Below, in pieces: positions 19,050-55,839 of a stretch of DNA of 64,000 bases. Every line of letters starts with the position of its first letter. Positions within the stretch are counted from its first letter, which is position 1. The stretch comes from Escherichia phage phiWec179. Location: the sequence record LC739533.1; one strand, given 5' to 3'. Both the position numbers and the translations under genes were made by a program. The notes beneath the pieces are model-generated. The model searched no databases and was not told where the DNA came from. It saw only the letters and a program-made list of their open reading frames with translations.

Positions 19050-19128
19050 GATATTTGGAGGCGGGAATCGGATTCGAACCGATGATCTCCAGCATATGAA
19101 ACTGGCGAGGACGACCAAACTCCTCTAT
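19050..19128 (-). tRNA. tRNA with anticodon CAU (Met or Ile2)
   Basis: Hand-folded: acceptor AGCGGGA/TCCCGCC (1:72 mismatch), anticodon stem CCAGT/GCTGG, loop TTCATAT, T-arm ATCGG-TTCGAAT-CCGAT, encoded CCA. Confidence 0.6.
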
Positions 19129-19134
19129 CCCGCT

Positions 19135-19205
19135 ATTAGGTGTCCCGTGCTGGATTCGAACCAGCATCACAATAAGTTGTGGATCTCTTATCCTGTAAGT
19201 CTAAC
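19135..19205 (-). tRNA. tRNA-like element, non-canonical (no standard anticodon arm found)
   Basis: Perfect T-arm GCTGG-TTCGAAT-CCAGC and near-complementary acceptor strands, but the middle forms a CACAA/TTGTG tetraloop hairpin instead; no encoded CCA. Confidence 0.3.
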
Positions 19206-19206
19206 G

Positions 19207-19280
19207 GGAAACTGGTTGTTTCGACAAGAATCGAACTTGTGTCTCACGATTATCAGTCGTGGGTTCTACCATTGAACTAC
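19207..19280 (-). tRNA. tRNA-Ile (GAU)
   Basis: Acceptor TGTTTCG/CGAAACA, D-arm GTTC-AATGGTA-GAAC, anticodon arm CACGA-CTGATAA-TCGTG, T-arm ACAAG-TTCGATT-CTTGT, encoded ACCA. Confidence 0.75.
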
Positions 19281-19286
19281 GAAACA

Positions 19287-51842: not shown

Positions 51843-52135
51843 TGTATAAAATTACAATCGTAGAATCTGTGGGTGAGATTCGTAAAGAAATTATTCTGGA
51901 GACGGAAGATCTGGAACTGGTACGTGAAATCATAATTGGTAAGAATGTAGACAAGGTGGAGTCGGACGCACCCAACCTGATGATCGATGACCAATATGCA
52001 GAATTTCGTCGTATTTTTGAGGAAGAAAGGAAGAAGTGGGGCAAAGAACCAAACGTTTTTCGTCCTTATAATCCGTATCCTTCTGGTGATCCGTGGATCA
52101 TGACTAACAGAAACCCGTTTGAAATAACCTGTTGA
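51842..52135 (+). CDS. Hypothetical protein
   Basis: 97 aa; ATG overlaps upstream stop. Confidence 0.4.
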   Translation: MYKITIVESVGEIRKEIILETEDLELVREIIIGKNVDKVESDAPNLMIDDQYAEFRRIFEEERKKWGKEPNVFRPYNPYPSGDPWIMTNRNPFEITC

Positions 52136-52143
52136 GGTGGCCT

Positions 52144-52722
52144 ATGAGCAACCTATTTTACACAGGCGTGGGAAGTCGAGAGATAACCCACGAAGAATGG
52201 GATTTAATGGTCGCTGTAGCAAAGTGGTTGGCTAACTGTGGTTTTACTTTACGTTCAGGTAATGCAAACGGTAGTGACTCTGCTTTCGAAACAGGTGTGG
52301 AAGAATCCAAAAACAAATCTCTCAAGGAGATTTATATCCCTTGGGAGAAGTTTGAAGGCAATGATATTCCAGGTGAGAAAATAGTTCTTGCTAAACCTGA
52401 CAGTATGAACTATGCTATCAGTCTCCAGTGGATAAAGGATATTCATCCGGCATTTGATAAATTGAAACAAGGTGCACGTAAATTGCATCAACGTAACGTT
52501 CATCAGGTGTTGGGACAAGATCTGGAGCATCCAATTCCTTCTTTGTTTTTACTGGCTTGTTCCAAAGAAGATAAGAAGGGAGACGTTATGGGTGGAACAC
52601 GGACGGCGTGGCTCATCGCTAAAGCTAATAACGTTCCATGTTTTAACTTACGTGGTAAAACAAAGGAAGAACTTTATGCTTTTCTTAAACCGTTGGTCAA
52701 GGGGGCAATCAGTGGCAATTAA
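52144..52722 (+). CDS. SLOG / DprA(Smf)-like Rossmann-fold protein
   Basis: GVGSR ... LRSGNANGSDSAFETG ... HQRN ... GGTRTAWLIAKANNVPCF matches DprA/SLOG pattern; start set to ATG 52144. Confidence 0.45.
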   Translation: MSNLFYTGVGSREITHEEWDLMVAVAKWLANCGFTLRSGNANGSDSAFETGVEESKNKSLKEIYIPWEKFEGNDIPGEKIVLAKPDSMNYAISLQWIKDIHPAFDKLKQGARKLHQRNVHQVLGQDLEHPIPSLFLLACSKEDKKGDVMGGTRTAWLIAKANNVPCFNLRGKTKEELYAFLKPLVKGAISGN

Positions 52723-53236
52723 GTTAAATCGTGCAAACGTAGGTAATCGTTTTAACCTTAGCCGTATAAACGAGGACGTAGATGTTACAGCAGATATTGA
52801 AAAAATCATGCAGGGTATTGTCCATCACGGTTTGCGTTTTGCCAGGGATTTGGTAATCTTCCGTTATGACGGAGAAGATGATCGTTCAAAGAATGATGGG
52901 ATTATCTTCGTAGATAAAGATTTAACCCAAGCAGATATTGAACAGATCAACCGTTATTTTATTGGTGTAGGGGATCTTCAAGACACGCAGCTTGCACGTA
53001 TGGCAGAAATTCTGGCGAATAAATTGTTGCAAGATATCGGAAAAGTTCTTGACAAAAATCCAAAACATGTTATAGTGACTATCCACAAAATGAGTTTTAT
53101 TAAGTATCTTAACAAACCTGGTAAACTGGGTTATGGATGGATACGCACAAGTGGACCACAAACCACTCTCGAAACCGAGATGTGCTATACAATTGAAGAA
53201 GTAAAACGTGAGGAGGAAGAGAATGGCGGAATTTAA
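52676..53236 (+). CDS. Hypothetical protein
   Basis: Long listed ORF trimmed to first start with RBS (ATG 52676; GTG 52712 alternative). Confidence 0.35.
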   Translation: MLFLNRWSRGQSVAIKLNRANVGNRFNLSRINEDVDVTADIEKIMQGIVHHGLRFARDLVIFRYDGEDDRSKNDGIIFVDKDLTQADIEQINRYFIGVGDLQDTQLARMAEILANKLLQDIGKVLDKNPKHVIVTIHKMSFIKYLNKPGKLGYGWIRTSGPQTTLETEMCYTIEEVKREEEENGGI

Positions 53237-53513
53237 TGAAGTGAAAAGTTACGAAAGCAATTTCGTAAGCAATTGGGAAGCATGGGATGAGATGGGTGTT
53301 GGTGAACTCTATTTCTACAATGTAACCCTTCGTCCAGAATATCAACATCTCATTCCAGAAGGCACTGTGCAGATCGGTATGTTCATGTCTTCTCAAGACG
53401 GTGTTGTGCAGTTTGAGTTTTACTCTGACACAGAACAGAACGAATTCACTTATCGTGCATTCAATATCGTATTAGCTTTAGGAGAGGAGAAATTTTATGA
53501 CGACGAAGTATAA
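53223..53513 (+). CDS. Hypothetical protein
   Basis: Start set to ATG 53223 after RBS GAGGAGGAAG. Confidence 0.4.
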   Translation: MAEFNEVKSYESNFVSNWEAWDEMGVGELYFYNVTLRPEYQHLIPEGTVQIGMFMSSQDGVVQFEFYSDTEQNEFTYRAFNIVLALGEEKFYDDEV

Positions 53514-53694
53514 AACAGTAGCAGAAGCACTGAAAGCAGCACACGAAGCCATTGCAGAAGCTGAACAATTGGCTGATGAAACTGGCACAAGTTTTCACTT
53601 CTCTGTTGAATATGGGATGGGTGGTACTTATGACCCAGAAGATGAGAACGAATACACTGGGACCAACTGGCACCCATCTTCCCTCGGTTGTTAA
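53497..53694 (+). CDS. Small Cys-terminated protein, paralogue 1
   Basis: N-terminal alanine-rich helix, Gly/Tyr/acidic core, C-terminal W-x-P-SS-x-x-C. Confidence 0.45.
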   Translation: MTTKYKTVAEALKAAHEAIAEAEQLADETGTSFHFSVEYGMGGTYDPEDENEYTGTNWHPSSLGC

Positions 53695-53708: not shown

Positions 53709-53927
53709 ATGAGTGATCGTAATGCACAAGCATTAGCAGACAAAGCAAAAGAAATCATGAAGCTTGTGGATGCACTGGCAGCAGAAGCAGAAAAGGAAGG
53801 TTTCGGTCTTAGCTTAGAAAACAATACAATCTGTTTTGAAGATTGGCAGTCTTCTGCTTGCTATGGCGAAGCTGATGATGGTTTCACCGTTGACTCTGAC
53901 GGTGTTTGGTATAGCAGTAATTGTTAA
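53709..53927 (+). CDS. Small Cys-terminated protein, paralogue 2
   Basis: Same architecture as 53497-53694; ends ...VWYSSNC. Confidence 0.45.
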   Translation: MSDRNAQALADKAKEIMKLVDALAAEAEKEGFGLSLENNTICFEDWQSSACYGEADDGFTVDSDGVWYSSNC

Positions 53928-53936
53928 GGAGGGATC

Positions 53937-54206
53937 ATGTCAGAAGGTAGTGCCTTAATCAAGGCAAAAGTTAAAGAGATGGAAGAATCACAACAGAAGT
54001 TCCGCAACGAGATTGAAGAGCTTTGTGAGCAGTTCCAAGAACAAGCGTGGATCGGTGATTACGGGAATGGGGAAACTTACTACCCAACAGGAACAAACGC
54101 AGAAGAACATTATCTCACCTATATCTGCGGAGACTATGATATTGAGATTGACGAAAACGGTCTGATGACCGAAGGTCTTTGGGTGTCTTCCTCGGAAATG
54201 TGCTAA
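53937..54206 (+). CDS. Small Cys-terminated protein, paralogue 3
   Basis: Same architecture; ends ...LWVSSSEMC; followed by strong terminator. Confidence 0.45.
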   Translation: MSEGSALIKAKVKEMEESQQKFRNEIEELCEQFQEQAWIGDYGNGETYYPTGTNAEEHYLTYICGDYDIEIDENGLMTEGLWVSSSEMC

Positions 54207-54214
54207 TAAATAAT

Positions 54215-54238
54215 AACCCGCTTCGGCGGGTTTTTTAT
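54215..54238 (+). terminator. Rho-independent terminator
   Basis: CCCGC-TTCG-GCGGG followed by TTTTTTATT. Confidence 0.7.
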
Positions 54239-54247
54239 TGTGTGAGT

Positions 54248-54276
54248 GTTGACAAGACACGAAGAACCTGGTAGAC
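54248..54276 (+). promoter_or_regulatory. Sigma70-like promoter
   Basis: TTGACA -35, 17-nt spacer, TAGACT -10. Confidence 0.5.
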
Positions 54277-54305
54277 TTGTCTCATCAACTAAGAGAGGAG
54301 GATAT

Positions 54306-55244
54306 ATGAAAGTATTAATCGGTAGTCGTGCGTTGGAAATGATTTGTCGTTCTCGTGGTGTAGAACTGTATCGTGCTTGCGTAGATCTGGATTACCTCTG
54401 CACTGAAGAAGAGTGGCAAGCAGAAGCCCAGAAATTCTCGAAAGATCGTTTCGTAGAAATTGTTGAACGTAAAGGTAACAAAGGGCATATCAAAATGATC
54501 GCGGGCGCTCATCTGGAATATGATATTGCACAACCAGGCGACTCTACAGATGCTTTGATTCAATACATCAAAGAGAATGCAGATCATCTGCCGCGTATTG
54601 GTTATGATGTGGTCGCGCCTTTGGATGTTTTATACCTTCTGAAGATGAGTCACCGTTTTAAGAAGGACAGTCCTCACTTCCTGAAAACAATGAAGGATAT
54701 CCACTTCATGCGTAACCTTGGAGCGAAGATCCCTGAAGAGTTGGAAGATACATACAAACTGCGTCAGAAGGAGTCCTATAATTACGGGCACCCTAATCTG
54801 AACGTGAAAAGTAAAGATTTCTTCAAGGGTGATGAAGTGCCTTATGTGTATGATCACGATAGCCTGCACAGAGTTTTAGCTGTAATGGAGGAACCAGCTT
54901 ACACGAACTACCTAAAGGATGGTAACGAGGTAATGACAAGTAAAGATAAGTTCTATGCTGTTGACGAAACTACCAGATTGCTTGGGGTGTTAGAGGAGAG
55001 TTTGGTTCTGGCTTCGGAAAGGTGTCTAATACCTTTCAACTACAGTGTTACAGGGAAGAAGGCATTTCTTATGGCTTTGACTAAAGTTTGCACTTCTATC
55101 ACATCGGGCTACTTTCGAGAATATGCTTATGAAAAGTTCTTCCTTGTGTGTAAGGTATACGATAATATGTATCCTAACGACGAGTGGGTGGATACGTTAA
55201 GACAAGCCATAGATAAGGGGGCTGTTGATGTATATAAAGCATAA
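54306..55244 (+). CDS. Hypothetical protein, possible nucleotidyltransferase fold
   Basis: N-terminal LIGSRALEM ... CVDLDYL loosely resembles the GS...DxD signature of Pol-beta-type nucleotidyltransferases; weak. Confidence 0.3.
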   Translation: MKVLIGSRALEMICRSRGVELYRACVDLDYLCTEEEWQAEAQKFSKDRFVEIVERKGNKGHIKMIAGAHLEYDIAQPGDSTDALIQYIKENADHLPRIGYDVVAPLDVLYLLKMSHRFKKDSPHFLKTMKDIHFMRNLGAKIPEELEDTYKLRQKESYNYGHPNLNVKSKDFFKGDEVPYVYDHDSLHRVLAVMEEPAYTNYLKDGNEVMTSKDKFYAVDETTRLLGVLEESLVLASERCLIPFNYSVTGKKAFLMALTKVCTSITSGYFREYAYEKFFLVCKVYDNMYPNDEWVDTLRQAIDKGAVDVYKA

Positions 55245-55839
55245 ATATTTAGGAATCACAGACGAAGACTCCAAAGATGGAGAATTCGTCTACACGATCA
55301 CAGCAGCGAATGGATACTACCAGACCCGTATAGGGGGTTTATGGAGAGCTTTAAATGCGCGGGTAGGTAAGGGATCATACACAAACGTATGTGTAGATTT
55401 TAAAGATTTCAAAGAGTTTGCCGAGAGTGTAACAATATTAGCCAATTATAAAACATTAGATAGTTATGGGAACCACTATCACTTAGATAAAGACTTAAAA
55501 TGTTACAAGAAGGATAAATCTTACAACAAAGATTCAGTGCTGTTTATCCCTGGGCACTTAAATACCGCCTTGAAAGGTGTGATCCCTTACTTGGAGTGTG
55601 GGGCTACTTGTGGAGTCAGTTTTAGTAAGATTCGGAATAAGTTTCGAGCCTACTGTAATGATGGCGGTAGTAGACAGATACATTTAGGGTACTTCGAAAG
55701 TAAAGAAGCTGCTCAAAAAGCTTGGGTATTGGAGAAGATAAATCAAATAAAACGTTCCTTAATCAAAGAGAACATCTCGGACGAAGATATTTTGTATTTT
55801 ACGGGTGTTTTGATAAGCGATTTAGAAGGAGGTTATTGA
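55228..55839 (+). CDS. HNH homing endonuclease-like protein with AP2-like domain
   Basis: GNHYHLDKD ... N ... PGHLN HNH-like core plus FRAYCNDGGSRQIHLGYFESKEAAQKAW AP2-type element. Confidence 0.45.
   Translation: MYIKHKYLGITDEDSKDGEFVYTITAANGYYQTRIGGLWRALNARVGKGSYTNVCVDFKDFKEFAESVTILANYKTLDSYGNHYHLDKDLKCYKKDKSYNKDSVLFIPGHLNTALKGVIPYLECGATCGVSFSKIRNKFRAYCNDGGSRQIHLGYFESKEAAQKAWVLEKINQIKRSLIKENISDEDILYFTGVLISDLEGGY

Follow-up and report, generated by a model that had tools for sequence, protein, structure and literature searches.

A probable nucleotidyltransferase of new architecture, apparently restricted to phages, and the small cysteine-tailed proteins encoded beside it

What kind of enzyme is encoded at positions 54306 to 55244 of the Escherichia phage phiWec179 sequence LC739533.1, and on what does it act? 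The question arose from a sequence-only reading of the stretch analysed here (64,000 nucleotides, hereafter the window), according to which the N-terminus of this open reading frame (ORF), LIGSRALEM...CVDLDYL, weakly resembles the GS...DxD signature of Pol-beta-type nucleotidyltransferases. Both the ORF and the motif proved real and far from chance, being conserved in 127 representatives of the family, and the gene very probably encodes a nucleotide-transferring enzyme of the Pol-beta superfamily. The most informative feature of the locus, missed by that reading, is its tight linkage to small upstream genes whose products end in cysteine, and we tentatively propose that these proteins are the substrates. 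The enzyme gene and its two domains are as follows.

54306..55244, plus strand: nucleotidyltransferase gene, 312 amino acids (Pfam DUF7277 and DUF7275; PHROG 2141)
54306..54590, plus strand: N-terminal minimal Pol-beta nucleotidyltransferase core (residues 1-95) with G6-S7, D27-x-D29 and E71, from model topology and residue conservation
54591..55241, plus strand: C-terminal helical domain (residues 96-312, DUF7275), with no solved-structure counterpart

The ORF ends with its stop at 55244, and its real start is the ATG at 54306, because a GAGGAGG Shine-Dalgarno sequence lies 4 bases before it (54295-54301) and M-x-x-I-G-S is the N-terminus of all enzyme homologs. The protein matched DUF7277 (residues 3-87, 36.3 bits) and DUF7275 (residues 108-291, 227.8 bits; cut-off 27), as well as phrog_2141 (E 8e-104), all three of unknown function. 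DUF7277 was matched in 126 and DUF7275 in all 127 of the relatives.

Conservation was counted over the 127 representatives, which are 35 to 54% identical to the query. G6 (127/127), S7 (124/127), D27 (126/127), D29 (127/127) and an acidic residue at the position of E71 (E or D in 124/127) make up the hG[GS]...DhDh...[DE] pattern of Pol-beta-type nucleotidyltransferases, and the catalytic residues were also intact in 122 unique enzyme copies taken from phage loci (G in 121/122, S in 120/122). The spacing from GS to DxD is 19 residues in the window protein, which falls outside the classical x9-13 range, and is as short as 13 residues in relatives. An AlphaFold2 model, built from a 40-sequence alignment (predicted local distance difference test 92.5, predicted template-modelling score 0.87), folded the N-terminal 95 residues as beta-alpha-beta-alpha-beta-beta-beta-alpha and the remainder as helices. 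In this model the hG[GS] turn (L-I-G6-S7) stands between strand 3-5 and helix 6-16, the [DE]h[DE]h motif (D27-L-D29-Y) is placed on strand 28-32, and the third carboxylate, E71, on strand 69-74.

The structural relatives of the model, with their match scores, were MenT1 (10.7), TglT/MenT3 (9.6), ANT(2'')-Ia (9.3), Megavirus poly(A) synthase (8.8), JHP933 (8.5), MenT4 (8.5), TM1012 (8.4), a Paracoccidioides nucleotidyltransferase-like protein (8.3) and LnuA (8.2). Foldseek was concordant, with MenT1 as the best match (E 8e-4). Since the larger matches (133 to 151 aligned residues) run past the N-domain and take in the first C-lobe helices, the enzyme is a two-lobed nucleotidyltransferase of the MenT/ANT/Lnu type. 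The nucleotidyltransferase fold suspected earlier is therefore borne out by the model and its match to MenT1, and a fold unrelated to nucleotidyltransferases was not found.

Sequence comparison alone gave fainter signals. Over the 127 members, sub-threshold Pfam matches were seen to DUF6036 ('nucleotidyltransferase') in three, to AbiEii in one and to MdcG in one, three families of the nucleotidyltransferase clan that bear annotations as nucleotidyl- or related transferases, and other weak matches were scattered. Two Acinetobacter phage records name the homolog 'putative nucleotidyltransferase', and nearly all other records call it 'hypothetical'. PDB sequence searches with the enzyme and with its profile returned noise only (SPT16), and searches of NCBIfam and PADLOC with the enzyme gave no match.

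The densest conservation in the enzyme lies in the DUF7275 domain, where K113, H116, K127, R153, H184, D185, H188, E230, E231, E238, R239, K260, G268 and R271 are invariant or nearly so and C262 is conserved to about 93%. H184-D185-x-x-H188, on one helix, could form a metal site together with glutamates 42 to 54 residues further on. The invariant H116...H184-D185 also led us to consider an HD-domain phosphohydrolase for the C-terminal half; folded alone, the domain gave no HD-like or other significant match, and this candidate was rejected. In the MenT toxins, a motif III lysine and a motif IV aspartate of the C-lobe make up the catalytic site. The candidate for the lysine, K113, is invariant and lies at a MenT-like distance from S7, and the candidate motif IV aspartate, D131, varies (D in 95 and H in 19 of 122).

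The family is large. Searches with tblastn found it in 735 GenBank phage records, a database clustered at 90% identity held 987 of its proteins, and clustering at 50% identity gave 1,689 clusters (E<=1e-3), nearly all of about 300 amino acids with end-to-end alignments. The GenBank records include RB69-type T4-like phages, Phapecoctavirus, phages of Acinetobacter, Aeromonas and Pseudomonas, and jumbo phages. Phapecoctavirus phages are often isolated as therapeutic candidates. In a scan of 100,044 bacterial and archaeal species, with one genome per species, the enzyme was found on 7 contigs only, all in metagenome bins (one contig of 383 kb), which fits phage contigs binned by mistake. The family therefore appears to be restricted to phages, and this argues against a cellular toxin-antitoxin or defence family. 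Widespread and apparently phage-restricted, it is a nucleotidyltransferase of new architecture. Literature searches for the family identifiers (DUF7275, DUF7277, PF23940, PF23942, phrog_2141, phrog_899 and RB69ORF134c) found none, with incomplete coverage, so that prior work is possible.

Directly upstream of the enzyme gene in the window stand three genes for small acidic proteins, referred to below as partners.

53497..53694, plus strand: partner gene 1, 65 amino acids, ending ...NWHPSSLGC; strong Shine-Dalgarno sequence and ATG; phrog_899 E 7e-14; family hidden Markov model (HMM) E 8e-21; tail pattern present
53709..53927, plus strand: partner gene 2, 72 amino acids, ending ...VWYSSNC; Shine-Dalgarno TAAGGAG and ATG at 53709; phrog_899 E 3e-4; tail pattern present
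53937..54206, plus strand: partner gene 3, 89 amino acids, ending ...LWVSSSEMC; Shine-Dalgarno AAGGAGG and ATG; phrog_899 E 5e-13; tail pattern present

Proteins of this kind have 60 to 150 amino acids and a median isoelectric point (pI) of 4.4. Their N-terminus forms an amphipathic helix with an A-[DE]-E-x-G-h-x-F pattern, a YGMGG.Y.P motif is frequent, and the chain ends in G-W-x-[SAP]-S-[S]-x-x-C, or, reduced to what is shared, in W-x-x-S-x(1-4)-C, with one to four residues between the serine and the terminal cysteine. In an alignment of 36 partner sequences (23% mean identity), the tryptophan, the serine at W+3 and the terminal cysteine were the only invariant columns; the short tail that is the sole constant feature of these proteins thus holds two nucleophiles. 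The partners match PHROG 899, a family of unknown function; none matched a Pfam family, and their profile found no real match in the PDB, where designed helical proteins were noise. A terminal cysteine was present in 137 of 151 partner family members and in about 2% of other small ORFs in the same loci, and the same tail occurred on different N-terminal bodies, in 40 further ORFs that the HMM had missed. Among the 642 ORFs of at least 30 amino acids in the window, the three upstream genes were the only ones that bear the tail (0.08 expected from shuffles). Because the tail is carried by varied protein bodies and in one to six copies per locus, it looks like a recognition or modification tag and less like an inhibitor interface.

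Partner gene 2 carries an internal second copy of the motif, WQSSAC-YGE. It belongs to a double-motif subgroup (window 53709-53927 and loci L065, L068, L070, L011, L079 and L067) in which an internal W-x-S-S-x-C is followed by Y-G-E and the chain ends in W-x-x-S-x-C; the motif therefore need not stand at the extreme C-terminus, and processing after the internal cysteine is conceivable. Among the highest copy numbers seen was that of L037, a 9.5-kb IMG/VR contig with six partner genes around one nucleotidyltransferase gene, five upstream and one downstream.

The strength of the coupling was measured in 80 IMG/VR loci around enzyme relatives, in GenBank regions (T4-like, Acinetobacter, Otagovirus, jumbo and Phapecoctavirus phages) and in the window; all ORFs were clustered, and 34 lineages were defined at 60% enzyme identity. 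By ORF clustering alone, 17 of 34 lineages had a member of the partner family no more than 5 kb from the enzyme gene; it shared the strand of the enzyme gene in all 60 cases and nearly always lay just upstream. The partner HMM found members in 66 loci, and in 72 of 87 loci after a second round, and 109 of the 115 first-round matches ended exactly on the cysteine. The pooled set comprised 152 loci with 122 unique enzymes, of which 117 loci, those with at least 3 kb of upstream sequence, were evaluable. A W..S.{1,5}C-tailed ORF was present in 111 of these, and in 103 it lay on the same strand and ended no more than 2 kb upstream. The numbers of tail-bearing ORFs per 1-kb bin, relative to the enzyme gene, were:

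2-3 kb upstream: 13
1-2 kb upstream: 54
0-1 kb upstream: 187
0-1 kb downstream: 15
any other bin: 0-3

The six exceptions were four loci with variant tails (one or two residues past the cysteine, or an internal motif), one with a tail-less family member, and L075, which had no candidate. The reverse test gave the same picture: of 62 loci seeded on a tighter partner subfamily, 58 were evaluable, and all 58 had the enzyme gene on the same strand, 0.2 to 2 kb downstream; the remaining four contigs end just after the small gene. In GenBank, the 89-residue partner of the window matched 406 phage records, and the numbers of partner and enzyme records ran in parallel by genus (Escherichia, 250 vs 259; Klebsiella, 34 vs 35; Enterobacter, 34 vs 36; Shigella, 18 vs 18). 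Every other neighbour family (among them ribonucleotide reductase, DNA ligase, Nampt, NinI-like phosphatase, metallophosphoesterase, HNH endonuclease, Rnl1 and exonuclease) occurred in no more than 6 of the 34 lineages, which indicates that the pair is retained while the surrounding genes change. The ribonucleotide reductase, DNA ligase, Nampt, NinI-like phosphatase and Rnl1 genes, together with a DprA-like gene, were considered as conserved partners and set aside, since occurrence at this level (each at most 6/34) reflects regional synteny and not coupling. The enzyme and the small proteins are genetically coupled, and apparently form an obligate gene pair, a two-component module.

What might the enzyme do to its partners? 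The explanation we favour, tentatively and at somewhat short of even chances, is that it nucleotidylylates the invariant tail serine, with a nucleoside monophosphate (NMP) or another triphosphate-borne group. The minimal N-domain, with its GS, DxD and E residues, would hold Mg2+ and a nucleoside triphosphate, the large family-specific helical C-domain (DUF7275) would serve as the acceptor-binding lobe, and the enzyme would bind the W-x-x-S-x(1-4)-C tail of the partner. The NMP, or other group from a triphosphate donor, would then be passed to the serine hydroxyl with release of pyrophosphate, and the neighbouring tail cysteine may join follow-up chemistry; more speculatively, the activated serine could be eliminated and a thioether ring closed by the cysteine. 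We infer the role of the partners as substrate, that of the serine as acceptor, and any later step. Among the nearest structural relatives, several (ANT(2'') and LnuA) nucleotidylylate hydroxyl groups. With a median pI of 6.2 and 13% of its members above 8, the enzyme family is not basic, unlike typical tRNA-binding enzymes, and a near-neutral pI accords slightly better with an acceptor other than RNA.

On a wider scale, large lytic phages may carry a protein-tail modification pathway, in which a fusion of nucleotidyltransferase and helical domains recognises a portable tag on varied small acidic proteins, proposed to be expressed early, and modifies the serine covalently; we put this forward as a possibility, with considerable reserve. 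The chemistry could be, among others, stable nucleotidylylation, transfer of something larger carried on a triphosphate (up to a 5'-triphosphate RNA), or elimination at the serine and attack by the cysteine, with formation of a lanthionine-like ring. Once modified, the proteins would be directed at the host; in takeover or counter-defence they might, for instance, mimic nucleic acids or inhibit covalently. Two anonymous gene families become one testable system, and the partners become recognisable as a tag-bearing small protein family, unannotated so far. Should they prove to be substrates, the system would be a pathway of post-translational modification that is encoded by a virus and built on a portable recognition tag; it would bear on host takeover or counter-defence biology and might yield an enzyme for labelling proteins. 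Should the enzyme act on RNA instead, it would represent a new branch, in phages, of the MenT-like modifiers of tRNA ends, and its regulators would be of a new type.

Several observations weigh against modification of the tails. Of the closest solved relatives whose substrates are known, MenT1, MenT3 and MenT4 act on tRNA 3' ends and the others on small molecules, none on a protein, and MenT1 also has a short helical protein encoded upstream, the antitoxin MenA1. In 13 of the 34 lineages, tRNA genes are found no further than 10 kb away, and an RNA ligase, in one case with Pnk, is nearby in a few. The dense invariant set of His, Asp and Glu residues in the C-domain suggests chemistry that the proposed mechanism does not explain, and the homologs of Streptomyces phage Blueeyedbeauty and Gordonia phage Yvonnetastic keep the enzyme motifs without a Cys-tailed neighbour. 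In the window itself, a predicted terminator and a fresh predicted promoter stand between the small genes and the enzyme gene, so the two would not be strictly co-transcribed. The putative signals, all from consensus scans, are:

53049..53076, plus strand: sigma-70-like promoter, TTGACA-16-TATAGT (11/12 matches)
54215..54240, plus strand: intrinsic-terminator-like hairpin (7 bp, 5 of them GC) with T-run, in the interval between the small genes and the enzyme gene
54249..54277, plus strand: sigma-70-like promoter, TTGACA-17-TAGACT (10/12 matches, extended -10 TG), ahead of the enzyme gene

The layout is thus promoter, one unrelated ORF, three partner genes, terminator, promoter and enzyme gene, and, judged from its sequence, the promoter-like site at 53049..53076 could drive the ORF at 53208-53513 and the three small genes.

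The main alternative, which we regard as less likely, is that the enzyme is a MenT-like RNA or tRNA 3'-end nucleotidyltransferase that blocks host translation or rebuilds damaged RNA ends, with the small proteins as pseudo-substrate inhibitors or regulators in the manner of antitoxins. MenT1, MenT3 and MenT4, its best structural matches, add nucleotides to tRNA acceptor ends; the pairing of MenT1 with MenA1 and the presence of tRNA genes in 13 of 34 lineages point the same way, although this frequency, which by a rough estimate exceeds that for random position, is weak evidence, both kinds of gene lying in the same early accessory regions. Jumbo phage 7t3 has Rnl1 and Pnk just upstream, 4 of the 34 lineages have Rnl1 at a distance of up to 10 kb, an RNA ligase is found 1.3 kb upstream in Blueeyedbeauty and a tRNA cluster 1.5 kb downstream in Yvonnetastic. 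Phage RNA-repair nucleotidyltransferases do exist: RlaP (PF10127), an RNA-ligase-associated enzyme of phages and bacteria, is, like the enzyme studied here, a Pol-beta nucleotidyltransferase present in large phages, and it extends damaged RNA 3' ends by one or two NMPs. However, our enzyme has no PF10127 match, and that family was not among the 25 most frequently matched over the 127 members, so membership in RlaP was rejected; its linkage to RNA ligase is sporadic (the 4 of 34 lineages, plus 7t3 and Blueeyedbeauty), whereas that to the tail proteins is near-universal. The window protein likewise has no significant match to the MenT/AbiEii family (DUF1814, PF08843; none at E<=1), and the one match among the 127 members (E 0.021) was below threshold. 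In MenT the catalytic aspartate stands two residues after the Ser/Thr (D41, D80), at the place of an invariant alanine in the phage enzyme, which instead has its acidic pair on strand 2 as a classical DxD; the C-lobe of the phage enzyme has about twice the size and resembles no solved fold. MenT belongs to a bacterial toxin-antitoxin pair, whereas the phage enzyme is phage-restricted, without a PADLOC match, and absent from isolate bacterial genomes, so that it is no cellular toxin-antitoxin family. MenA1, a short helical antitoxin encoded upstream of MenT1, inhibits through a long helix and its C-terminus is dispensable; the phage partners are unrelated to MenA and AbiEi, and it is their C-terminal tail that is invariant. 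One to six copies of a partner, and the same tail on different bodies, would be unusual for an antitoxin, and the enzyme family is not basic.

Less probable again is a small-molecule O-nucleotidylyltransferase of the ANT(2'')/Lnu type, inactivating or building a metabolite, an antibiotic-like compound or a host immune signal, with the small proteins as carriers, chaperones or separate entities. ANT(2'')-Ia and LnuA, which act on antibiotics, and the small putative nucleotidyltransferases JHP933 and TM1012 have small-molecule acceptors, much smaller C-lobes and no linked small-protein partner. This alternative leaves the near-obligate, position-specific linkage to the tail proteins unexplained, and no biosynthetic or transport genes recur nearby. 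The idea from which the question started, a CCA-adding or tRNA 3'-end repair enzyme serving phage tRNAs without encoded CCA, is very improbable. The sequence-only reading had placed the gene near tRNAs, at least three of them lacking CCA. The array (19056-21113) is on the minus strand, opposite to the enzyme gene and some 33 kb away from it, and only tRNA-Tyr lacks CCA. ARAGORN predictions end exactly 3 nucleotides past the ends of the Rfam models, and reading those 3 nucleotides gave an encoded CCA right after the discriminator base in 9 of the 10 ARAGORN tRNAs; an eleventh, tRNA-like gene also encodes it. In favour of this role are the fold, the one tRNA without CCA and the presence of CCA-adding enzymes among the weak Foldseek matches; class II tRNA nucleotidyltransferases, the CCA-adding enzymes and poly(A) polymerases, share the superfamily and the type of catalytic metal-binding motif. 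Yet CCA is encoded in 10 of 11 tRNA-like genes, no match to a PolyA_pol/CCA family or to RlaP was found in Pfam or NCBIfam, structural similarity is weak, and the alignment contains none of the nucleotide-selection motifs GGxVRD, RRD and EDxxR. At 312 residues, the enzyme is also much shorter and without the head-neck-body-tail architecture, and the host E. coli has its own CCA-adding enzyme. Least credible of all is a signalling nucleotidyltransferase (CD-NTase/cGAS-like) with a cyclic or linear oligonucleotide as its product; its one sign is a handful of CD-NTases far down the Foldseek ranking (E 0.04-0.3, probability 0.14-0.54), and nothing else points to such an enzyme.

The two array members that matter here are:

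20339-20422, minus strand: tRNA-Tyr, the only array tRNA without encoded CCA, with TCA after the discriminator base
20641-20726, minus strand: tRNA-like gene with a long variable arm, missed by ARAGORN (Rfam tRNA-Sec, 37 bits, below the gathering score)

The second of these ends ...CCTTCC-T-CCA and is probably a type-II tRNA (Leu/Ser-like). Retron-Eco7 is reported to target tRNA-Tyr, and the tRNA-Tyr of phages to counteract this retron.

For modification of a protein tail, the nearest functional precedents come from elsewhere in the superfamily. CitX and MdcG transfer a phosphoribosyl-dephospho-CoA group onto a serine of small acidic acyl-carrier proteins. The likeness is one of functional analogy: from a triphosphate donor, a phospho-linked group is passed to a serine in a partner that is small, acidic and helical and whose gene belongs to the same cluster. 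No sequence relationship was detected, however (a match to the MdcG C-terminal domain was seen in 1 of the 127 members, E 0.06), no CitG/MdcB-type donor synthase and no lyase subunits occur among the recurrent neighbours of the phage enzyme, and the modified serine of CitD and MdcC lies outside any C-terminal W-x-x-S-x-C tail, unlike that of the phage partners. GlnE, GlnD, DrrA/SidM and MntA (of HEPN-MNT) are Pol-beta-fold enzymes that place AMP or UMP on the tyrosine hydroxyl of a specific partner protein. They differ in modifying tyrosine and not serine, their partners are unrelated, and they were absent among the listed structural matches. PsmN, annotated as a nucleotidyltransferase, acts at the C-terminal phospho-serine of a lasso-peptide precursor, and might serve as a looser precedent by analogy.

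Single loci showed further variation. The clearest RNA-repair-like neighbourhood seen is that of the Salmonella jumbo phage 7t3 (L004, 3135-8834), where a 6-kb stretch contains, all on one strand, the genes for RNA ligase 1, polynucleotide kinase/phosphatase, partner and nucleotidyltransferase, and a Ser/Thr phosphatase gene lies 1 kb further on. The two actinophage homologs, of 251 and 260 amino acids, retain GS...DxD and the C-domain motifs and have a shortened N-domain without the E71 strand. In both Blueeyedbeauty (L152, 4582-5280) and Yvonnetastic (L153, 4603-5423), the shortened nucleotidyltransferase gene is followed by two paralogs of 105 to 153 amino acids with an invariant G...S...DG core (G-[WY]-x-x-S) and no terminal cysteine; homology of these paralogs with the Cys-tailed family was rejected (hhalign probability 0.6%). 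A metagenomic protein of 377 amino acids (P0149) appeared to be a partner-nucleotidyltransferase fusion. It was set aside as a Rosetta-stone fusion, because the tryptophan directly after its conserved terminal cysteine could be a TGA stop read under an alternative-code gene call; it may come from a stop-codon-recoded phage or be a gene-calling artefact. Another homolog, 66% identical (P0018), is named 'PROTEIN HNS-DEPENDENT EXPRESSION A HELICAL, STRUCTURAL PROTEIN' in one database, which looks like an automated structure-match label without support in this analysis.

The window is 100% identical in this region to Escherichia phages phiWec181 and phiWec186, of about 150 kb and closest to the genus Phapecoctavirus. 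A DprA-like gene (phrog_768; 52132-52722, plus strand) lies 1.6 kb upstream of the enzyme gene, and in Aeromonas phage 44RR2.8t (L001, 10702-10819) a DprA-like gene lies about 5 kb from it. The host labels of two records, PsgM04F (OR584014.1, 'Pseudomonas phage') and MG065650.1 ('Campylobacter phage B15'), look doubtful; their identity to the E. coli Phapecoctavirus phages here is about 95% in DNA or 81-100% in protein. Directly 3' of the enzyme gene stands an HNH-type homing endonuclease gene (phrog_953, with an AP2-like domain; 55225-55839, plus strand), which as listed, with a TTG start, overlaps the end of the enzyme gene by 20 nucleotides. In the close relatives phiWec188, phiWec190 and PsgM04F the region was matched in two pieces with 71% covered, which suggests that the HNH gene is a mobile insertion absent from these phages.

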